From Escherichia phage NHEP1: a DNA stretch of 64,000 nucleotides. The notes beneath the pieces were generated by a model that worked only from the letters and a program-made list of their open reading frames with translations, made no database searches and was not told the origin of the DNA. Positions 24,844-49,150 of this stretch are shown here, in pieces (positions within the stretch are counted from its first letter, which is position 1; the number at the start of each line of letters is the position of its first letter). The position numbers and the translations under genes were made by a program. The stretch is taken from the sequence record PQ511146.1. One strand, 5' to 3'.

Positions 24844-24927
24844 GGTGTTTTCCTTCCAGTTGTGAGCGGCACTATTGCCGCCCTACGTGATACATCTTAC
24901 ACTATCCGGCACATCATGCAAGCTATT

Positions 24928-25577: not shown

Positions 25578-25646
25578 TCTGTCATGTTGGCGGCAGCATT
25601 GCCGCCCTACGAAATACATTCTACCCGATTTGTAATTGTTGTCAAA

Positions 25647-25963: not shown

Positions 25964-26134
25964 TTACTCTTCATCGTCGCCGTTATAGTATTCAATGCCG
26001 TTTTCATCGGTTACGGTAATATTAACGCCACCGATAGCAACACGATCACGGGCAAACGTCATGGCTTCATTTAAATCTTCAGACCAAAAAATATTGTGAC
26101 CTTTGCGCGATACGTAAAACATAGTCGGGATCAT
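25964..26134 (-). CDS. Small ORF (56 aa)
   Basis: Not in track; ATG preceded by promoter plus GC-clamp hairpin cassette; translation MIPTMFYVSRKGHNIFWSEDLNEAMTFARDRVAIGGVNITVTDENGIEYYNGDDEE. Confidence 0.4.
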   Translation of the reverse strand: MIPTMFYVSRKGHNIFWSEDLNEAMTFARDRVAIGGVNITVTDENGIEYYNGDDEE

Positions 26135-26216
26135 GATTTGTTTCTCTTTTGTTGTGAGCGGGAAACCATTTCCCGCCCTATGTGATACATCTTAAACTAA
26201 TTTAAAACGTTGTCAA
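26135..26216 (-). promoter_or_regulatory. Promoter (TTGACA-N16-TAAGAT) followed by GC-clamp 5'UTR stem-loop (PeSL-like cassette)
   Basis: Minus-strand hexamers map to plus 26211-26216 and 26189-26194; hairpin GAGCGGGAAACCATTTCCCGCCC at 26156-26178. Confidence 0.5.
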
Positions 26217-26446
26217 TTATTTTCAAAAAATTTTTCTGCCGTGATATTCTTCCCGGTAGGGTTCGCTACTTTCAAAATTTTATCATGCACTGGACGCCCA
26301 AAAGAATAAGCGCCGTACACAGTGCACCAATAATCGCCGTCAGGCTGTACTATTACCGCCGCATAGGGTACGCCTTTTTCGTTTTTGCTGACAAAATAGA
26401 TCACATTGCCATTAATAGCCTCAGCGCGTTTAATTTGTTCCATCAT
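26213..26446 (-). CDS. Hypothetical protein
   Basis: Track ORF 77 aa. Confidence 0.5.
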   Translation of the reverse strand: MMEQIKRAEAINGNVIYFVSKNEKGVPYAAVIVQPDGDYWCTVYGAYSFGRPVHDKILKVANPTGKNITAEKFFENN

Positions 26447-26509
26447 GATGATTCACCTATCTTTATTTTTTCATAGTTTCAGGAGGGGCCTTTTTCGGCC
26501 CCGCCAGGC

Positions 26510-26794
26510 TTATTTATTGATGGCGTGCAGCGGGAAAGGTACGCCAGGTTGATAGATAACTTTTACAACCTCATCAGGGCAAAAGAAGTTACAAAATTCA
26601 CCCCGATAAGCTTCATCTTCTTTTAATTCTTCATCAACATACTCAAAAAAGTAGTCGATGCTTGGATAATCCTGGCCGGGATTATAGTCAACCATTGTCA
26701 GGACCAGTTCAAGATCGTTGCGTAGGATATGCATACCTGCTTTTAAGTATTTTGCTTCCATTTCTACTACATCGCCAACGGTAACAATAGCCAT
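26510..26794 (-). CDS. Hypothetical protein
   Basis: Track ORF 94 aa. Confidence 0.5.
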   Translation of the reverse strand: MAIVTVGDVVEMEAKYLKAGMHILRNDLELVLTMVDYNPGQDYPSIDYFFEYVDEELKEDEAYRGEFCNFFCPDEVVKVIYQPGVPFPLHAINK

Positions 26795-26998
26795 GGTTTT
26801 AACTCCTATCTATCTGGTTAATGATTGGAGGCCTCACCGCTCCCCCGACACCCTTTATTATCCATATTGTAGGACTTGATGCAAGTACTTCTTTAAAAAT
26901 TTTTAAGCGCCTTGAGGCCGCTGTAACGCCAAAATAATAAAGGCCATGCGGTTGCATAGCCATTAGATGATTATATCGCTGTAGGCCCTGCTGGGGCC

Positions 26999-27349
26999 TT
27001 ATTTTGCATTATTTCCTATATTGCCGCTACGGTACCAGCGTTTACGGTGAAAATGGTAATAATCGCCATCGGCATTAAACATCAGATGGTTTTCAATAAC
27101 CAGCTTACGAAGGTGGGCCGGATCTTGTTCCATTCTTGCCAGATTCTGGCGGCTGTTACGTAAGCGGATAAATTCCATATTCAGGCCGTTGATTGCAGCA
27201 TGGATGTCAAAGTAACCACCTTTGAGACGTTCACGCATGGCGTTAATCTCAACACAATATACAGATTTCTCACAAATCAAGGTATTAGCCAGGGCGCGGA
27301 CCTGGGCAAGGGGGTTAAGCTCATTAAGGTAATATAGTTTTACTTTCAT
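26999..27349 (-). CDS. Hypothetical protein
   Basis: Track ORF 116 aa. Confidence 0.5.
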   Translation of the reverse strand: MKVKLYYLNELNPLAQVRALANTLICEKSVYCVEINAMRERLKGGYFDIHAAINGLNMEFIRLRNSRQNLARMEQDPAHLRKLVIENHLMFNADGDYYHFHRKRWYRSGNIGNNAK

Positions 27350-27366
27350 AAAATAACCTGCTGAAA

Positions 27367-27672
27367 CTAGTTTGAGAAAACATCGTTCACAATAGCGATC
27401 ACAATGCCGTTCACCTTGTCACGGTCAACAATGCACAAATCACCATAGATCATGTGGTAGTCTGGATGATCTTTGACGGAATAGTCAATCAATGTTTTCT
27501 TATCATCCAGCTTACCAACTTCCATTCTCATAACGATATGAGAATCATCAAAGGCATTATTCCGAAAAGTCATAACCTGACCGCCAGGGCACCCAGTGAT
27601 TTCCACCTCCACGCCGTCTACGATCTGACCATCAAAGAAATAAAGATTATTAGCCTGGATAAACATGATCAT
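27367..27672 (-). CDS. Hypothetical protein
   Basis: Track ORF 101 aa. Confidence 0.5.
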   Translation of the reverse strand: MIMFIQANNLYFFDGQIVDGVEVEITGCPGGQVMTFRNNAFDDSHIVMRMEVGKLDDKKTLIDYSVKDHPDYHMIYGDLCIVDRDKVNGIVIAIVNDVFSN

Positions 27673-27716
27673 TACTCCTTTTTTGCACTGATTATTTTAA
27701 CAGGGTTTAAATTTAC

Positions 27717-27756
27717 TTTATTGATGGCCCTGGAATCAAGGCCATCTAAAAATAAA
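27717..27756. repeat. Conserved 40-bp hairpin cassette TTTATTGATGGCCCTG..CAAGGCCATCTAAAAATAAA (copy 1 of 3)
   Basis: Near-identical copies at 31423-31462 and 32045-32084. Confidence 0.6.
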
Positions 27757-27758
27757 TT

Positions 27759-27959
27759 TTACAGGCCTACAATCTCTTTAATTCGTTTTACTGCTGCCTC
27801 AGCGCCTTGAGGGTAAAAATTATGGTAACCAATCACGCGAGTGATACTAATCGCCGTTTGATGATCTTCATAATCACCTTTAAAGATTTCTTGACCGTCA
27901 ATCAGCACGGCAATTTTTTCTTCTTTTTTGAAGTTAATAACGCGGATATTGTTGCTCAT
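27759..27959 (-). CDS. Hypothetical protein
   Basis: Track ORF 66 aa; promoter, GGGGAGCAATCCCC hairpin and AAAGGAG RBS upstream. Confidence 0.5.
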   Translation of the reverse strand: MSNNIRVINFKKEEKIAVLIDGQEIFKGDYEDHQTAISITRVIGYHNFYPQGAEAAVKRIKEIVGL

Positions 27960-28434
27960 TTTGTTTCTCCTTTCTAGTCTTTGTGGTGGGGATTGCTCCC
28001 CGTTGATTGTTATTATCCATATTCCGGACCGGATTGCAACACCCTAGAAGAAAAATTTTTGAAAAAGTTAAGCCCCCAGGGATTGGGGGCCGTTATCAGT
28101 TACTTACAGCGATAAAGTACATCCCTACGCCTAACAATATTTCAAGAGCGATGATCTCAAGCCATACCGTAACACGGCGCACCTTATCGGTGCGGGGCTT
28201 ATCCTTGGGTGTCATCGTCTCCCCCTTTCCTCCTGTTAGCAGTTACGTGGTTTGCAATGGTCCCCAGGAGTATTATCACCACGCACATTACAAGAAAAAT
28301 TATCTCTGTCGTTGTTCGATCCATTGTTATAAAATTCCTTAAGATCAGGCCTGAAAATAAAGCTTTCGTTATTGAATCCATCCCGCCAGGCGGCTGGCTT
28401 CAAATCTTCACTAAATGGATTAATTAACGTGGCA

Positions 28435-28836
28435 TTATTTCGGCTGGCCCACATATTTTCTATTCCTCTTAAATAAGCGATCCGCCTCAGTTAAACAAAT
28501 CTCATGGGCGTGATCTCTGGTTTTAGCTTCATCGAAAACCTGTTGTGCAAGGCTGCAACGTAGGGAGACTGGAAGATCACTATAATAGGCGTTGACAAAC
28601 GTTTGAGCGTCGTACAGGTCTGAAAATACTTTACCCTTTCTATTATTCCCCTTGTCAACAATTGCAAGGATAACCAATACAATAGTTGCAACCACCCCCA
28701 GGAAAATAGATATAATAAACCATAAAAAGGCGGATCTTCCCATCTTGCCAGCGATCCAGGCGTTAAACAAGGCAACCAATACAGCCAAAATAATAAATTC
28801 CATTCTATGTACCTCTTTTACAGTTCTGATTAACAA
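28435..28836 (-). CDS. Membrane protein (two predicted TM segments)
   Basis: Hydrophobic stretches FIILAVLVALFNAWIAG and FLWFIISIFLGVVATIVLVILAIV. Confidence 0.5.
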   Translation of the reverse strand: MLIRTVKEVHRMEFIILAVLVALFNAWIAGKMGRSAFLWFIISIFLGVVATIVLVILAIVDKGNNRKGKVFSDLYDAQTFVNAYYSDLPVSLRCSLAQQVFDEAKTRDHAHEICLTEADRLFKRNRKYVGQPK

Positions 28837-28867
28837 TAAGGCGGCAAATATGCCGCCTGTTACCTGA

Positions 28868-29248
28868 TTAAAAATTATCGCCGTAAATCTTTCCGCTTTC
28901 TACCCATACCACCACGCGAGGCATACTATCCCACACGTCTTGTTTTAGATTGAGCGCGTGCAATTCTTCGGTGGTGCTCATACCAGGCACGGGCTGATTG
29001 TATACTGCAAAACGACCACCCGCATAATCATAGGCCAGGGTTAAATCACACTGGATCATCTTTTTGATCATGGCATTAAGCATGGCGTTAGCCGCATATT
29101 GATCACGTTTTAAAGGCAACTCTTTGATTAGTTTGCGATAGTTTTCGATATGGTCGCACACTGTTTCACGCGGAAGATCTTTCATATCTTCACGGAATGT
29201 GACCAGGTTAAACATAACGGTGTCAATAGCCTTGGTAGTGTTTTTCAT
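28868..29248 (-). CDS. Hypothetical protein
   Basis: Track ORF 126 aa. Confidence 0.5.
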   Translation of the reverse strand: MKNTTKAIDTVMFNLVTFREDMKDLPRETVCDHIENYRKLIKELPLKRDQYAANAMLNAMIKKMIQCDLTLAYDYAGGRFAVYNQPVPGMSTTEELHALNLKQDVWDSMPRVVVWVESGKIYGDNF

Positions 29249-29338
29249 GATGTTATCCTCTTTGTTTTGTGTTGGGGCAAACGTCTTGCCCCCTTGAGTT
29301 TTAATATAGCAGGTTTTTAGGTTATTGCAACACTTTAT

Positions 29339-29962
29339 TTATGAAAAAGTCATCTCACCATATTCATCGACATCAAACCGCCAATCATTGGCCTCGATAA
29401 GGCCGATCAGGTTTTCTGCGGTGAACTGTTCTAGATAGGCCTCCTCCAGGTCTACGTAAACCTTGCGGGATAGCTCCCGTGCCGTCTCGGTGATCAGTTC
29501 TTCCAGGTCTTCCACTTTGTTTTCTTGTTTGGCGGTCAGATCTAGCCAAGTGGTATCAATGTACCCGTTTACAGTGTTTTCATGGCTGTAATGGCTGTAC
29601 TTGTCGCGTTCAATACTGGCGGATAGTTCGCCATCGTGCATTGTGCCGAACAAGTGACGAATTGATCTGAACTTGGTCAGGGCCTTGACTTTACGCAAGA
29701 ATTTTTCTAAGTCTACATTTTCAGCACTGATCGATGCGCCATCGCCTTGACACCAAAAGCCGGACCAATGTACTTCGGTATCTTCAAGGCCGTACTCTGG
29801 AAAGATATATTCTTTGTAGTATTCAATTACATTTTCTGCAAAAAAGTCATCCCCGCTGCGTTCTTCTCTTTCGCGTACCATTTCAATGGCTTTTTCTTTT
29901 TGTTCGTCGGTCAGCACGTCGAAAGATAAATTGTAACCTGTGGTAATGTTAACGGTGGTCAT
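29339..29962 (-). CDS. Hypothetical protein
   Basis: Track ORF 207 aa; preceded by promoter and hairpin cassette. Confidence 0.55.
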   Translation of the reverse strand: MTTVNITTGYNLSFDVLTDEQKEKAIEMVREREERSGDDFFAENVIEYYKEYIFPEYGLEDTEVHWSGFWCQGDGASISAENVDLEKFLRKVKALTKFRSIRHLFGTMHDGELSASIERDKYSHYSHENTVNGYIDTTWLDLTAKQENKVEDLEELITETARELSRKVYVDLEEAYLEQFTAENLIGLIEANDWRFDVDEYGEMTFS

Positions 29963-30048
29963 GATATTTTCTCCTGTTTTCTTTGTTAGTGGCGGGAAGT
30001 TTTCCCGCCTGCGTGTTTAATTATACTTATTGGGATTTACTTGTCAAC
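29963..30048 (-). promoter_or_regulatory. Promoter (TTGACA-N16-TATAAT) followed by 5'UTR stem-loop GGCGGGAAGTTTTCCCGCC (PeSL-like cassette)
   Basis: Minus-strand hexamers map to plus 30042-30047 and 30020-30025; hairpin at 29991-30009. Confidence 0.55.
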
Positions 30049-30297
30049 ACTATTTTTTAAATTATTGTGGCGCAAAATGTTTAAAATCTCCTCAACGTCA
30101 TCAACACGGCGGCAATTTTTAAACGCTACCAATTGCCCCATGATTTTAATCACTGGGCGGCCTTGCCAGTGCCCCTGAAGAAAGCGCGCCTTGACTTTAT
30201 CGGTGGAACTATCACGCCACCAAATAGCCTTGTTGTTGCAGTAGTAAAAATTATTCAGGATAACATCAACTTTATCAAAATTTTTTAATTTACGCAT
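30037..30297 (-). CDS. Hypothetical protein
   Basis: Track ORF 86 aa. Confidence 0.5.
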   Translation of the reverse strand: MRKLKNFDKVDVILNNFYYCNNKAIWWRDSSTDKVKARFLQGHWQGRPVIKIMGQLVAFKNCRRVDDVEEILNILRHNNLKNSVDK

Positions 30298-30516
30298 GGC
30301 GTTTACTCCTTTCTCTCTTTGATGTGGTTAGTATAGCTAACCTGTTGACGATGTCAATGATATTTTTAACGCCATAAAACGGCCCTGGGCGATGTTTTCA
30401 GGTTAAAGGGGGGCGATTGCATAGGTGGGGGCCTTTTTGGCACTTACAGGGCCAACCAGGGGCGCTATTCGTAGGATAGAAATAAAAAGCCCCGCACAAT
30501 GGCGGGGCGTTGGTTG

Positions 30517-30738
30517 TTATTTGTCTTTATGGCGGTATCGTTCTGCCTGTCGTTCACGTTCCAAAAGTAGGCAGGGCAATTTACGATCATAATGATTCCG
30601 CCAGATCTTCCCAAACCTTTTTGGCTTATTCAGTTTATTGTTACGCTGTCGGCGTTCTGGCAGCTCTTCGGAATCATGAGGGCGCTTTACAATTTTCTCG
30701 AAATTAATTTTCATATATTCCCCCCTTGCTAACTTCAA
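30517..30738 (-). CDS. Small basic hypothetical protein
   Basis: Track ORF 73 aa, Arg/Lys-rich; chosen over the overlapping plus-strand ORF for strand consistency. Confidence 0.4.
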   Translation of the reverse strand: MKLARGEYMKINFEKIVKRPHDSEELPERRQRNNKLNKPKRFGKIWRNHYDRKLPCLLLERERQAERYRHKDK

Positions 30739-31075
30739 TATTGGCCTGAATGGCCCGGATACGGCGCTTTATAACTTCCTGATCTGTGTGGTCGTATCCC
30801 CAAAAGTCCACAATTTTTGCGCCCCCAGCCTCCAGGCGGTATAGTGTTTCCTGCATTTTGTAAGCCGGGATCGGTCGCGGTGTTACTTGGTCACCTTCTT
30901 TATTTTTATACTTTATAATATAATCTTCGTTATCGTTGAATTCCCAAAATGGATATTCTGCAAGGGCGGTACTTCCTCTTTCCTTTTTATCCTGGATCTT
31001 ATTTACAATTAAAGCCGTAGCAATAGCGCCAATAATAAAACTAGCCCCGCTGATCATGTTACTTTCTCCTTTCAT
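30704..31075 (-). CDS. Hypothetical protein with N-terminal TM segment
   Basis: Track ORF 123 aa. Confidence 0.5.
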   Translation of the reverse strand: MKGESNMISGASFIIGAIATALIVNKIQDKKERGSTALAEYPFWEFNDNEDYIIKYKNKEGDQVTPRPIPAYKMQETLYRLEAGGAKIVDFWGYDHTDQEVIKRRIRAIQANIEVSKGGIYEN

Positions 31076-31131
31076 GGTGTTAATAAATTATCTTTATAGA
31101 TGGCCCTGCAACCAGGACCACCGAAAAATAA

Positions 31132-31377
31132 CTATTTCACAATGCCTACAAAACAGATCCCGCCTTCACCTATGTAAGCAATATCGGTCACTTTGTAGTC
31201 GGTTAAGATCTGTTTATTCAGATCATTAATAAAATCGGTCATTGCGTTGGTGTAGTTGTCTTCTGTATCTAAGGCATAATCCCAGGTGTAAACCTTTTTA
31301 CGTCCGAAGCCTTTTACCATGATACGGGCGCTTTTGGTGTTAGTAGGGGCATAATACTTGGTGATTAGTGCTGCCAT
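31132..31377 (-). CDS. Hypothetical protein
   Basis: Track ORF 81 aa; GAGGAG RBS. Confidence 0.5.
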   Translation of the reverse strand: MAALITKYYAPTNTKSARIMVKGFGRKKVYTWDYALDTEDNYTNAMTDFINDLNKQILTDYKVTDIAYIGEGGICFVGIVK

Positions 31378-31422
31378 GGTTTTAACTCCTCATTAGTTCA
31401 GTGTTAACAGTGTAAAGTTTAC

Positions 31423-31462
31423 TTTATTGATGGCCCTGAAGTCAAGGCCATCTAAAAATAAA
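31423..31462. repeat. Conserved 40-bp hairpin cassette (copy 2) carrying a minus-strand TTGACT -35 in its loop
   Basis: Minus strand reads TTGACT-N18-TAAACT upstream of gene 31132..31377. Confidence 0.55.
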
Positions 31463-31464
31463 TT

Positions 31465-31806
31465 TTACTCGTTTTCTTCCAGCTTTGAAAGCTCTTCTTT
31501 CACTTCTTCAAGCTCTGTCTGCAATTCTTGGTATTCTTCGTCGTCCTCAATATCCAGGCTGTCGATGTAGTCGCTAAATCCGCAGCGGTAAGCGATAGGA
31601 TCTAACTCCTTGAGGATACGCGACGGAAGAAAAGAAATGCTTCCGATCATAATTTCGCCGTAGATCTCGTCTAACCATTCATCATAGTTTTCGTCGTACT
31701 TGTCCTCGTCGATTTCAAAGTTATCGATCTTGTTCTCAAGGTCTGCGATCTGTTTTTTCAGCGCGGCGATCTGCATAGCTTTTTCTGCGGCGGTCATAGT
31801 AGTCAT
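31465..31806 (-). CDS. Acidic coiled-coil-like hypothetical protein
   Basis: Track ORF 113 aa. Confidence 0.5.
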   Translation of the reverse strand: MTTMTAAEKAMQIAALKKQIADLENKIDNFEIDEDKYDENYDEWLDEIYGEIMIGSISFLPSRILKELDPIAYRCGFSDYIDSLDIEDDEEYQELQTELEEVKEELSKLEENE

Positions 31807-32044
31807 GGTGTTTTCTCCTTTTGTGTATTCTGGGAAGTTTTCCCGTTTACGTGTTTAAGTATATCAATCTAAGTTAGCTTGTCAATTAAAAATTTAAGAA
31901 AAATTTTGCAAAACTGTTAGCGCTACTCATTAACATTTGCGCCAGGATGTAACCGACAACGCAAACGATAATAGTTACCTTTGTGTATTGGCGTGTAGTG
32001 CTCATCTTAAAGCCCCCTTTTTCGCTTAGTTGAGACTAGTTTAC

Positions 32045-32084
32045 TTTATTGATGGCCCTGGAGTCAAGGCCATCTAAAAATAAA
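32045..32084. repeat. Conserved 40-bp hairpin cassette (copy 3)
   Basis: Same sequence family as 27717 and 31423. Confidence 0.55.
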
Positions 32085-32085
32085 C

Positions 32086-32490
32086 TTAATAAGTTTTCAG
32101 TACTTTACCGTCCAACCTGTCAAGCTGGATCTCAATAGCTGCAGAAAACCTATTGTACACCACGTCGCCCATGGAATCCAACCAGTCTATGACGTTATAC
32201 ACCTGCTCTTTGTTCTTGCAGGTCCGGATCCGTTTCATGATGTAAGCCGGATCAATATTGGTACTTTCGTTGGTGTTCCCCTGTACCTGATTTGCCGTAT
32301 TAGTTACATCTTTAATGGCCTTTACCACCACCTGGAAGGGCTTTAAGGTGCCTTTTGCGTTCATCTCACGCACTTTTGCGGCGCGGTTGTTATAGGTTAC
32401 ACAACGGCGGCAAATGTTCACTAAGTGCATGTCAATAATTTTTTCATCGTTTGCCAGTTCGTTCATGATGCGGCGTACGTTCTTATTCAT
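32086..32490 (-). CDS. Hypothetical protein
   Basis: Track ORF 134 aa. Confidence 0.5.
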   Translation of the reverse strand: MNKNVRRIMNELANDEKIIDMHLVNICRRCVTYNNRAAKVREMNAKGTLKPFQVVVKAIKDVTNTANQVQGNTNESTNIDPAYIMKRIRTCKNKEQVYNVIDWLDSMGDVVYNRFSAAIEIQLDRLDGKVLKTY

Positions 32491-32566
32491 GATCTTTTTC
32501 CTTTGTGTTGGCGGGAAACATTCCCGCCTTTTGTGATTAGTTTACTTGAATTTTGCAGCGTGTCAA
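32491..32566 (-). promoter_or_regulatory. Promoter (TTGACA-N16-TAAACT) followed by stem-loop GGCGGGAAACATTCCCGCC
   Basis: Minus-strand hexamers map to plus 32561-32566 and 32539-32544; hairpin 32510-32528. Confidence 0.5.
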
Positions 32567-32572
32567 CAATTT

Positions 32573-32971
32573 TTATTCGTGGGCGCATGTTACAATGTGC
32601 TTTTTATAGCCCAGGTGGTTAGCAAGTGCCGACAAAAACTCTTCTTCATAGATCCAGCCGTTGGCAGTGATCCCCATAGCATTTAATGCGCTCTCAAGTG
32701 CTGCATTAGCTTTATCGTAACCGTGACCGCTCGCCTTCCCGCCAGTATAACCGTACTTATTGTTCTTGTTGTCGTGAATCCAAAAAACACAGTATTGAGT
32801 GTTCCCGCTGGCGGCGGCATAATACCGGATCTCAGCTACTTCGTGCAAATTATTGTCATCGTCCAGGCCCACCAGATTATAAGCCTTGTAAAATCCACGA
32901 TCACGGCGGCAGTTCTTGACATCAGAAAAAGAAAAGTCCGCATTATCAAAATTAAAGGTAGTGGTTTTCAT
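32573..32971 (-). CDS. Hypothetical protein
   Basis: Track ORF 132 aa. Confidence 0.5.
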   Translation of the reverse strand: MKTTTFNFDNADFSFSDVKNCRRDRGFYKAYNLVGLDDDNNLHEVAEIRYYAAASGNTQYCVFWIHDNKNNKYGYTGGKASGHGYDKANAALESALNAMGITANGWIYEEEFLSALANHLGYKKHIVTCAHE

Positions 32972-33035
32972 GATTTTATCCTCTTAGTGTCTTTTGTGCT
33001 TTTAGTGTATTTGGTGTCAGAATGTATGTCAATAC

Positions 33036-33233
33036 TTATTTTTTATTAAACCAGTGGTTGATCTGGCCTTTTGTCAGGGCGCAACGATTAAGCTGTTGCC
33101 GGGTGTAGCTCTGACCGCGACGGAATTTATAAAGGCCTTGCCCGTTGTTGATGGTTACGTCCACCTGGCAAATCATTTGATCGGTGACGGCCTGGCGAGT
33201 GTTGCGACGTACTTTAATTCCGTAGGCGTTCAT
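33036..33233 (-). CDS. Hypothetical protein
   Basis: Track ORF 65 aa. Confidence 0.45.
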   Translation of the reverse strand: MNAYGIKVRRNTRQAVTDQMICQVDVTINNGQGLYKFRRGQSYTRQQLNRCALTKGQINHWFNKK

Positions 33234-33633
33234 GATTTTTATCCTCTCTGTTAATTAGTGTGGTGTTGTTCACCTTGCGAGGATAAGAATAACAGAACTA
33301 TCCGAGCTGTCAACCATTAGTTAGAATTATTTTTTGGGCAGAATTCTCCAGCCGCCGCCACTGCCAGGTTAACCATCATTTTTTCGTACTCTTCTTTATG
33401 TTCCAACGCTCCCGCCATAGCCTTTTCAACCAGGGCGATAGCCTCAGCGTCATTAATCGCTACATTTTCCAGGGGGGATCCTATTACCTTTCATTTTTGT
33501 ACCTCTTCTTCAGTTGTTGCCTACCCTGCATAGGCCCACCAGGTTTGCAAGCCTTCATTCTCCCCTACCTGGTCAGTTAGGTCCTGCCAGGCTGGCCCCG
33601 CCAGGTTGCAACGGTTAGCGCATCAGGTTAGAA

Positions 33634-34510
33634 TTTTTTTTTTTTTTGAAAGTGTTGACAGCGGCCCCGCCAGGTGGCACAATATACCTATCGAAAGGAC
33701 GGCAGGCACCGGTGACGGGGGAGACAACCACCGGGGATGGGCGCTGCATAAAATGAGAACGGTTATCATTATCATTTAAAAATTTATGCAAAAAATCCTT
33801 GCTCTCTTTGTCCTGTGTGATACTATAATAACAAGCCGGGGCAACAGGGGCCGGGAGACAATCACCGGGGGTGCCTGTTATTCTGCAAACGAGAATGATT
33901 ATCATTCAAAATTCTAAATGAGAACTTCTCGCATTTCATAAATTTAATTAGCATGCTAATTACCTACCGTGACAATTCTATATAAAATAATACCTCCTTA
34001 AGTATTTCCATATACAAATTTTAAAAATCCATTTCCGAAAACGAAAAATCGCTTTCGTTCCCAAAAATTTCAGGTCGAGCGCCGGAACGATTTCCAGAAA
34101 ATCTGATTCAGAAAACGAAAAACAGATCGAGTACTGAGAAATTTATCGAGAAAAATTTTCAGAAAATTCAATCTTTGAAATGAAAAACAGATCGAGTACT
34201 GAGAGAGATGTGCCTAAACTTCCTGATAATGATGGGCTTATTGTTATAAAAGGCCAGAAGTAAGTTGGGAAAGTTCTGGTAGATGGGTGAGAGTGTGTGC
34301 GGAAAATCTGGAACGGTGATTTGAAGTACGGTGCGAATGATAGAATGAGTAGCGCAGCTTATCGTGCCTGTCTTGAAAAAATCCATTTTAGTTTTCGATC
34401 CATTTTCTGATTTTCTAAGAATTTTAAAATATCCGACTAGGTAAAATATCAAAAGGAGGAAATCTATTTTAGAAACCCTCCTTATACTTGATGTGCCAGG
34501 GATTTTCAAG
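33634..34510. repeat. Repeat-dense non-coding hub: T14 tract, split hairpin element (copy B), direct repeats, 18-bp perfect palindrome
   Basis: T-run 33634-33647; GGGAGACAAYCACCGGGG twice; TAATTAGCATGCTAATTA at 33945-33962; GAAAAACAGATCGAGTACTGAGA twice. Confidence 0.55.
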
Positions 34511-38007: not shown

Positions 38008-38035
38008 AAAAATGCCCCACCCTTTCGGGCAGGGC
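38008..38035 (-). terminator. Rho-independent terminator (minus strand)
   Basis: Minus strand GCCCTGCCC-GAAA-GGGTGGGGC followed by ATTTTTGT; identical hairpin recurs at 49129-49150. Confidence 0.6.
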
Positions 38036-48350: not shown

Positions 48351-49134
48351 TAATTCTTCTCCTTACTGCAGGCTCGTTTGCTAAGAATACAGCTCTTGCC
48401 CAGCCACGTGGTGTAAGGCTTCGAATCATCTTCGTCCTTGCACTCTTTCCACCTAGCTTAGCGTGTTGCATGGAATAACCACTAACCGCATCAACTATTT
48501 GCGGGACAGGTTTTGTGGCGGGGATTATAAATCCATTGCCTATCCAACCGCAAGTTATTTTTGGGTAGGCATCACGTGGAGCTATAAATTCAGGAAACCA
48601 TGGGTTTACATCATCCTCTGGTAAATACCCACCATAATCCGAAGGATGAAAACGGTAATCAGGTTTTCGCCACAGTGTTGACATAACTCCTACAGGGTTC
48701 TCTACATGCCACGGGCAATCGTAAATCTCTCCCAACTCTTCTGCAACCCGAGCATCTTTCACAGCATTAATTTGGATCAGAGGATCCTTAGCCAGCTTTT
48801 TCTTAAAGTGTGCAGCTCCGGATACTGCTAAATGCGTGCACGGAGGAAATGCAAGAATAAAGTCTGGAGCCGGATACATGCAAAAAGTTTCTTGAGGGAA
48901 CCATGGATCAATCCAATAATCCACATAGTGAATGTTAGGATGATCGGTTATCACCTCTACATAACTACCGTGGTCAGCACCTTCTGCATTAAAGCACAGG
49001 CACAGGTACCCAGCTTTTGCCCAGTCAATAACTGCACCACCGGACCCGTCAAATAGACTCCACACGACACCTTTGTGGTAGTGTTCTTTGTAGATAAATT
49101 TCAATTTGCTGTCTCCTAATGCAAAAAGCCCCAC
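48340..49134 (-). CDS. Putative C5-cytosine DNA methyltransferase-like protein (start codon uncertain)
   Basis: Motifs LFDGSGGA (I-like), FPPCTHLAVSGA (PC motif), HVENPVG (ENV-like) in canonical order; track start is GTG inside a terminator hairpin, TTG at 49104 with GGAGA RBS is an alternative. Confidence 0.4.
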   Translation of the reverse strand: MGLFALGDSKLKFIYKEHYHKGVVWSLFDGSGGAVIDWAKAGYLCLCFNAEGADHGSYVEVITDHPNIHYVDYWIDPWFPQETFCMYPAPDFILAFPPCTHLAVSGAAHFKKKLAKDPLIQINAVKDARVAEELGEIYDCPWHVENPVGVMSTLWRKPDYRFHPSDYGGYLPEDDVNPWFPEFIAPRDAYPKITCGWIGNGFIIPATKPVPQIVDAVSGYSMQHAKLGGKSARTKMIRSLTPRGWARAVFLANEPAVRRRINGQ

Positions 49135-49150
49135 CCTTTCGGGCAGGGCA
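49129..49150 (-). terminator. Terminator hairpin identical to the one at 38012-38033
   Basis: GCCCCACCCTTTCGGGCAGGGC on plus strand. Confidence 0.45.

Follow-up and report, generated by a model that had tools for sequence, protein, structure and literature searches.

Repetitive extragenic palindromic sequences and bacterial interspersed mosaic elements (REP/BIME) of enterobacterial chromosomes are imperfect palindromes of ∼35 to 40 nt that lie just past stop codons within operons, stabilize the upstream mRNA and serve as recombination sites. Ribosome stalling has also been linked to hairpins located within ∼12 nt of a stop codon. Hairpins are also repeated between the early genes of phage T7, where RNase III sites of the R1.1 type stack two helices, about two turns in all, around an asymmetric internal loop mid-way. 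RNase III sites extend over approximately two helical turns, and internal loops restrict cleavage to one strand, leaving a protective 3' hairpin (PMC1540722). The promoter-early stem-loop (PeSL) cassettes of T4-like phages (Arbiol et al. 2010, PMC2839356; Comeau et al. 2014, PMC4122927) are short intergenic repeats of ORFan-rich early regions that join a σ70-like promoter, an A/T-rich upstream tract and a stable stem-loop able to overlap the promoter; recombination between copies, with crossovers inside the repeat at variable points, deletes or replaces the flanked genes between closely related phages. The criteria for a PeSL include circular excision products (mini-circles) formed during infection (PMC2839356, PMC4122927). 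Here we analyze a repeated hairpin cassette in the early region of an rV5-like phage (Vequintavirus), Escherichia phage NHEP1 (PQ511146.1), within a stretch of 64 kb that we call the window; all genes of the cassette region lie on the minus strand. On balance, we favor reading it as a PeSL-like composite regulatory and recombination cassette. Within our literature search, which returned no earlier account of the element, it has not been described before in the rV5-like phage group.

The cassette encodes a conserved hairpin on the sense (minus) strand, stands inside operons without a terminator tail, and has left recombination products in related genomes. A preliminary description of this DNA had listed three near-identical 40-bp copies and a degenerate fourth at gene boundaries, with a hairpin on the minus strand, and each of these points holds. 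Exact matches to the degenerate 40-mer (0 mismatches) lie at 27717-27756, 31423-31462 and 32045-32084 and at no other site in the window, with zero chance matches expected (100 shuffles); the repeat unit is ∼61 nt rather than 40. The fourth copy is real: its upper-stem pattern lies at 31099-31122 with 2 to 3 mismatches, repeat family D1 covers 31086-31146, and the covariance model of the family (R1) scores it at 64.7 bits. Run over the whole window with filters off, the model finds the four copies only. Each copy begins 0 to 2 nt past the stop codon of the upstream minus-strand gene, and all four sit at gene boundaries in an ORFan-rich, variable early region, as PeSLs do. The copies, numbered as in the preliminary analysis, are as follows.

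32032-32092, minus strand: cassette copy 3, the full 61-nt element, an exact pattern match with its upper stem at 32051-32074; neighbors, the rV5 ORF194 homolog (32086-32490) and the ORF193 homolog (31886-32005); R1 81.7 bits sense and 42.4 antisense; fold -25.1 kcal/mol, z -5.3.
31410-31470, minus strand: cassette copy 2, an exact pattern match with its upper stem at 31429-31452; neighbors, the ORF192 homolog (31465-31806) and the ORF191 homolog (31132-31377); R1 79.1 bits; fold -25.1 kcal/mol, z -5.5.
27704-27764, minus strand: cassette copy 1, an exact pattern match with its upper stem at 27723-27746; neighbors, the ORF179 homolog (27759-27959) and the ORF178/177 homolog (27367-27672); R1 82.1 bits; fold -25.2 kcal/mol, z -4.6.
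31080-31139, minus strand: cassette copy 4, a diverged paralog with no -35 motif and its upper stem at 31099-31122; neighbors, the ORF191 homolog and the ORF190 homolog (30704-31075); R1 64.7 bits sense and 31.9 antisense.

The minus-strand fold of each copy is a two-tier hairpin. A GC-rich upper helix of 10 bp (GAUGGCCUUG / CAGGGCCAUC, including one U·G) is topped by a 4-nt loop, and an asymmetric 2x3 internal loop (UA / AAU) separates it from a lower A/U helix of 8 to 13 bp (UUUAUUUU / AAAGUAAA) that starts 0 to 2 nt past the upstream stop codon. Of the shorter stem and TTGACT-bearing loop first proposed, the hairpin and the -35-like TTGACT stand; the stem is 10 bp, the second, A/U helix had been missed, as had the covariation at the RNA level and the retention in copy 4 of the hairpin but not of the promoter-like motif, and the hexamer covers the last three stem pairs as well as the first three loop bases and reads TTGATT in copy 1. 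Folding energies on the sense strand are ∼-25 kcal/mol, with z values of -3.8 to -5.5 across all copies, and copy 4 folds on the minus strand only (z -3.8 vs -1.1 on the plus strand).

Conservation of this fold was examined by aligning 32 distinct sequences, drawn from 17 genomes or contigs (638 cells; the sequences are related, and paralogs are included). Standard pairs fill 98.6% of the cells, compared with 35 to 57% when the partners are slid by 1 to 3 columns and 86.7% when the alignment is read antisense; the covariance model likewise gives ∼80 bits sense vs ∼43 antisense. Pairing in the upper helix is complete (100%), and variation there, at four pairs, involves G·U only. Both sides change at four lower-helix pairs (U-A/C-G; U-A/A-U/G·U/G-C; A-U/U-A; G-C/A-U/G·U), and in the most divergent contig an otherwise constant lower-helix U·G becomes U-A. 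The hairpin of copy 4 is retained via G·U pairs and compensatory changes, with covariation among its orthologs, which show a lower-helix series A-U, G·U, G-C and a switch from U-A to C-G. Nucleotide diversity is 0.003 to 0.005 in the stems, 0.04 to 0.10 in the 200-nt flanks and 0.18 to 0.29 in the loop; the stems are 10 to 30 times less variable than the flanks. The RNA hairpin is very probably under selection. An Rfam scan of 26000-34000 assigned it to no family, the best overlapping matches scoring 25 to 31 bits against thresholds of 47 to 80.

Two further observations concern the same hairpin. The loop (32061-32064, 31439-31442, 27733-27736) is several times as diverse as the flanking DNA and, in its last two positions, hypervariable from genome to genome beside almost invariant stems, which could reflect a mutational hotspot in the loop, crossover scars or selection. 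Single copies carry indels that damage the stem: copy 3 of phage Gotham lacks 5 nt of the 3' arm (L004:7009-7064), and 1-nt insertions occur in copy 4 of phage Alma (L003:5086-5148) and in one copy on a metagenome contig (L118:3758-3819). These are either real decay or assembly errors.

The copies lie inside three transcription units. Unit 1 runs from its promoter through ORF194 and copy 3 to ORF193; unit 2 comprises a promoter, ORF192, copy 2, ORF191, copy 4, ORF190, ORF189 and a terminator at 30508-30489; and unit 3 a promoter, ORF179, copy 1, two genes and a terminator at 26961-26942. Canonical terminators with a hairpin and a U-tract stand at 30508-30489, 28091-28071 and 26961-26942. Past the cassette hairpin the sense strand reads AAUAAAGUAAAC and the antisense strand UAAAAAUAAA. 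With no U-tract on either, the hairpin is not an intrinsic terminator; that identity, which its operon-internal position also contradicts, was rejected. The preliminary description had already judged the conservation greater than a terminator needs, and an ordinary terminator the cassette is not, lacking a U-tract and lying within operons whose ends have canonical terminators of their own. Where the inspected records annotate regulatory signals, none labels the cassette as a terminator or a repeat.

The cassette is very probably a recombination substrate, as had been suspected at the outset: chimeric cassettes with a loss of 622 bp occur in at least three lineages, and a cassette forms the right junction of a module in phage KKE7M (below). 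The lost segment lies between copies 3 and 2.

31471-32031, minus strand: module between copies 3 and 2, 622 bp with one repeat unit.
31886-32005, minus strand: ORF193 homolog of the module (39 aa).
31465-31806, minus strand: ORF192 homolog of the module (113 aa).
31885-31858, minus strand: module promoter TTGACA-16-TATACT, followed by a leader hairpin and ORF192.

The module is kept in 115 of 120 records. It is missing from ECP32, ECP26, phiWec189, ime and magaca, and from one IMG/VR contig (L040), all of which hold a single chimeric cassette whose left flank is that of copy 3 and whose right flank is that of copy 2. Trees of each flank place the deleted phages in three groups, every group beside a non-deleted relative: magaca and ime are 0 to 0.2% from EdH4, ECP32 and ECP26 are 0.8% from this window, and phiWec189 adjoins rV5. 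The retained loop variant differs between the groups, so the crossovers fell at different points within the repeat, as expected of homologous recombination or slippage and not of a site-specific event. The loops ACGC and ACAC and a G at alignment column 44, all of them rare variants, recur in different paralogs of different genomes, which suggests gene conversion between copies. By natural variation, ORF193 and ORF192 are dispensable. The ORF192 homolog is an acidic protein of 113 aa, annotated with a coiled-coil in one record, that has no Pfam family above threshold; the same holds for all eight proteins searched near the cassettes.

KKE7M (PQ356295; Justusliebigvirus, phi92-like, Stephanstirmvirinae) carries the promoter, the leader hairpin, ORF192 and an intact cassette, which scores 81.5 bits, at 97% identity to the window (foreign segment L119:2501-2976). 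Comparison with the phi92-like phage PD114 (L120) shows that this segment stands in place of an unrelated small gene. The left junction falls in the -35/spacer of the resident promoter and the right junction in the AATAAAGTAAA of the cassette, beyond which the resident leader hairpin and gene continue; the cassette's -10 replaces that of the resident promoter, at the correct distance from the leader hairpin. In PD114 itself, AATAAAGTAAACT is the spacer end and -10 of an ordinary TTGCAA-16-TAAACT promoter at the normal distance from its leader hairpin, and the -10 part of the cassette motif is homologous to this promoter. Of 50,697 phage records, no other has this junction. Judged from its sequence, the module is of Vequintavirus origin and crossed between subfamilies.

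Within the genus the cassette is a fixture. Its region is 92 to 95% identical to 123 GenBank Vequintavirus (rV5-like) records, and a 71-nt query finds it in 120 records, all rV5-like, nearly always in exactly three places. The 17 genomes or contigs that we read have it at the same gene boundaries: three copies follow the homologs of rV5 ORF194, ORF192 and ORF179, and the diverged copy follows that of ORF191. The preliminary description had inferred a recent duplication and proposed a search of related genomes. On that search the duplication was rejected, because the positions of the three copies are orthologous genus-wide, in ∼120 Vequintavirus records; the cassette is present in these relatives, and breakpoints map to it. 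The identity of the copies is kept by purifying selection on RNA structure and probably also by gene conversion between them.

Outside the genus little was found. A scan of IMG/VR with a 15-base pattern returned 67 loci, almost all chance single matches, with two Vequintavirus contigs only; the contigs recovered from metagenomes were all Vequintavirus-sized, and nothing more divergent appeared among them. The 5,426 E. coli genomes searched hold no copy, and 185,579 bacterial species genomes gave 30 isolated single chance matches in unrelated bacteria and no arrays. The ideas of a REP-like element or a mimic of clustered regularly interspaced short palindromic repeats (CRISPR) were dropped for want of host copies or arrays, and a ToxI-like pseudo-repeat as in phage phiTE (PMC3475682) was rejected since the copies do not stand in tandem and resemble it nowhere in sequence. 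A tblastn search with the ORF191 homolog found homologs beyond the genus in unrelated phages without synteny. Among the database records, 17 to 22 GenBank MG0656xx entries named 'Campylobacter phage' (host C. jejuni) are 93 to 96% identical to E. coli rV5-like/phi92-like phages, and their C. jejuni host label looks doubtful.

Copies 1 to 3 also contain a promoter-like motif, TTGAC(N), 18 nt and TAAA(C/T)T, with a T-rich tract upstream.

32038-32067, minus strand: putative σ70-type promoter of copy 3, TTGACT, 18 nt, TAAACT; 9/12 in a consensus scan.
31416-31445, minus strand: putative σ70-type promoter of copy 2, TTGACT, 18 nt, TAAACT; 9/12 in a consensus scan.
27710-27739, minus strand: putative promoter of copy 1, TTGATT, 18 nt, TAAATT; read from the sequence.

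Across the 24 distinct sequences of copies 1 to 3, TTGAC has changed once and the next two positions show four and two bases; orthologs of copy 1 have TTGACT in most other genomes. The upstream A/T tract resembles that of strong neighboring promoters, and the -10 context of copy 3, AAGTAAACT, is found again at a neighboring predicted promoter (32566-32539) and at the PD114 promoter. Of the records inspected, that of Gotham is the only one with automatic PhagePromoter calls on the element, at the sites of copies 2 and 1. We lean toward an active σ70-type internal promoter in copies 1 to 3, as the motif suggests. The hairpin is what all four copies share; the promoter is a probable property of three of them.

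A second, larger family of early cassettes lies nearby, on the minus strand at 32566-32491, 31885-31807, 30047-29963, 29330-29249 and 28039-27960, with further sites at 24861-24905, 25585-25629 and 26156-26200. Its layout is an A/T tract, a TTGACA/TTGCAA-16-TATAAT-like promoter, ∼10 nt, a GC-rich leader hairpin, ACACAAAG/ACUAACAAAGA and a Shine-Dalgarno sequence. These strong promoter and leader-hairpin units show the literal PeSL arrangement of a promoter and then a stem-loop, and their resemblance to PeSLs is at least equal to that of the hairpin cassette; one of them gave the left junction in KKE7M.

Under the composite reading, minus-strand transcripts that read through fold into the conserved two-tier hairpin right after the upstream stop codon, and in copies 1 to 3 an internal σ70-type promoter, predicted from sequence and homology, would start transcription of the downstream ORFan afresh. 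As the comparison of genomes shows, the near identity of these direct repeats lets homologous recombination or replication slippage delete the module between them, and the cassette is also a junction at which phages exchange promoter-gene-cassette units, across subfamilies too. The operon-internal hairpin would be a processing or stability element, whose likeliest form is an RNase III-type site resembling T7 R1.1; a cut in a single strand would leave the upstream cistron with a protective 3' hairpin. The arrangement of 10 bp, a 2x3 internal loop and 8 to 13 bp, with both helices conserved, has the geometry described for RNase III sites (PMC1540722). RNase III-type processing is a tentative assignment on that geometry, a plain stability or pause element is a comparable candidate, and any other role of the hairpin seems less likely than these. 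Neither a promoter nor a simple exonuclease block would, by itself, readily explain why compensatory changes maintain the lower A/U helix. A bolder version, which we consider unlikely, makes the hairpin a dedicated processing signal (for host RNase III or a phage factor) fused to an internal promoter. If true, a single 61-nt unit would mark both the end of the upstream message and the beginning of the downstream message, and such units, along with the promoter and leader-hairpin units, would make up an integrase-free gene-cassette system by which early ORFans are traded routinely among large virulent coliphages, rV5-like and phi92-like, that belong to different subfamilies.

Several observations weigh against the composite reading, and many of them speak for a pure RNA element, an intercistronic processing or stability signal (RNase III site or 3'-exonuclease barrier) in which the likeness to a -35/-10 pair is incidental, the downstream genes depend for their expression on read-through from the upstream promoter only, and recombination is a by-product of copy identity. 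Copy 4, with no -35 and a loop free to vary, retains its hairpin by compensatory change, and in the most divergent genome (contig L112) the hairpin of copy 3 is intact at a putative -35/-10 spacing of 20 nt. The motif is weak, its spacer being 18 nt vs 16 to 17 in neighboring promoters and its -10 matching at 4/6 positions with no TG; the consensus scan yields 40 such sites in 12 kb vs 26.8 expected by chance, and the element is missing from the rV5 authors' table of 33 promoters and 20 terminators. No study with transcript, cleavage or reporter data on an rV5-like phage came out of the literature search, and the RNase III assignment is made by geometry only. Nor are the structural and recombination data free of objections: nine cells at the two outermost lower-stem pairs are unpaired, including A·C combinations that favor the antisense strand; the covariation amounts to few independent events among related sequences and paralogs, and the shuffle control ignores relatedness; and the flank trees, built by neighbor-joining from ∼900 nt per flank, cover 15 to 16 genomes only. 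In principle, a single deleted allele that recombination passed between phages could account for the deletions in place of three events. Against a pure RNA element are a TTGAC that stays nearly invariant beside two hypervariable loop bases, a T-rich tract and AAGTAAACT context that match bona fide-looking promoters here and in PD114, and the cassette's -10 in KKE7M, which takes the place of the resident one with the leader-hairpin distance preserved. We regard such an element as possible, although on the doubtful side.

The opposite extreme, a pure DNA element in which the -35 of a promoter is overlapped by an operator palindrome, recognized by a dimeric regulator of the phage or the host, and the hairpin is irrelevant as RNA, would fit the 7- to 10-bp inverted repeat centered on the -35 and an arm conservation that far exceeds pairing needs. 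However, wherever the upper stem or the inner six lower-stem pairs depart from symmetry, the change is a transition that gives G·U on the sense and C·A on the antisense strand, in keeping with the better pairing of the sense reading; pairing is conserved in copy 4 without a -35, the A/U lower helix covaries outside any plausible operator, no regulator is known, and the neighboring genes lack Pfam domains. We judge this reading improbable. An intrinsic terminator or attenuator between early transcription units is the role that the PeSL authors gave their stem-loops, which lowered read-through in reporters (PMC2839356), and a stable GC-rich hairpin directly past a stop codon would suit it. It is a poor prospect here: AAUAAAGUAAAC follows on the 3' side with no U-tract on either strand, our terminator scan calls the neighboring terminators and passes over the cassette hairpin, the terminator tools used for the EdH4 and Alma annotation flag the neighbors and never the cassette, the same units end in canonical U-tract terminators, and the conserved lower helix would be superfluous for termination. 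A recently duplicated or selfish mobile repeat without phage function (REP- or CRISPR-repeat-like, or akin to miniature inverted-repeat transposable elements) would explain a short, imperfect, extragenic palindrome in near-identical copies, but it is largely refuted and hardly credible when the positions are fixed in ∼120 genomes, each 64 kb holds four copies only, E. coli genomes hold none, other bacterial genomes give isolated chance matches without arrays, and the stems are under strong purifying selection.

The composite cassette shares with the PeSLs short intergenic repeats among early ORFans, a motif like a σ70 promoter (in copies 1 to 3) with its A/T-rich tract, a stem-loop able to overlap it, loss or replacement of flanked genes between close relatives, and crossovers at variable points inside the repeat. 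It differs in belonging to Vequintavirinae and Stephanstirmvirinae and not to T4-like phages, without sequence similarity to PeSLs; in having four copies only, of one nearly invariant sequence; in the place of its -35, in the hairpin loop; and in a two-tier helix of ∼20 bp with RNA-level covariation and no U-tract, which makes it unlikely to be the terminator assumed for PeSLs. The T7 R1.1-type sites are matched in the repetition of hairpins between early genes of polycistronic units, in the two stacked helices of ∼two turns with an asymmetric internal loop mid-way, and in the 3' hairpin expected on the upstream cistron; their sequence is unrelated, the cassette is likened to them by predicted geometry only, and T7 sites are not known for loop promoters or a role as recombination junctions. 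Likeness to REP/BIME lies in the imperfect palindrome just past stop codons within operons. REPs, in contrast, are host elements in hundreds of copies linked to RAYT transposases, whereas the cassette is specific to phages, numbers four copies and does not occur in the E. coli genomes searched.

Two other repeats of the window were noted. A 27-nt repeat at 38009-38035 and 49123-49149 (96% identical, AAAAAGCCCCACCCTTTCGGGCAGGGC) forms a GC hairpin, and the two sites are probably paired terminators. A cluster of direct repeats free of open reading frames at 34024-34204, with units that contain CTCAGTACTCGATCTGTTTTTC (families D4 and D7), may correspond to the 'non-coding' box of the rV5 genome map.

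The rV5-like and phi92-like phages are widely used candidates for therapy and biocontrol, and their early regions are full of ORFans. A conserved cassette at module boundaries explains how early genes are lost and exchanged, even between subfamilies, and predicts sites that would tolerate engineered insertions or deletions. On the composite reading, the PeSL concept would reach beyond T4-like phages. The stem-loop half of the cassette shows clear RNA-level selection and yet is no classical terminator, which makes the function of such stem-loops directly testable.

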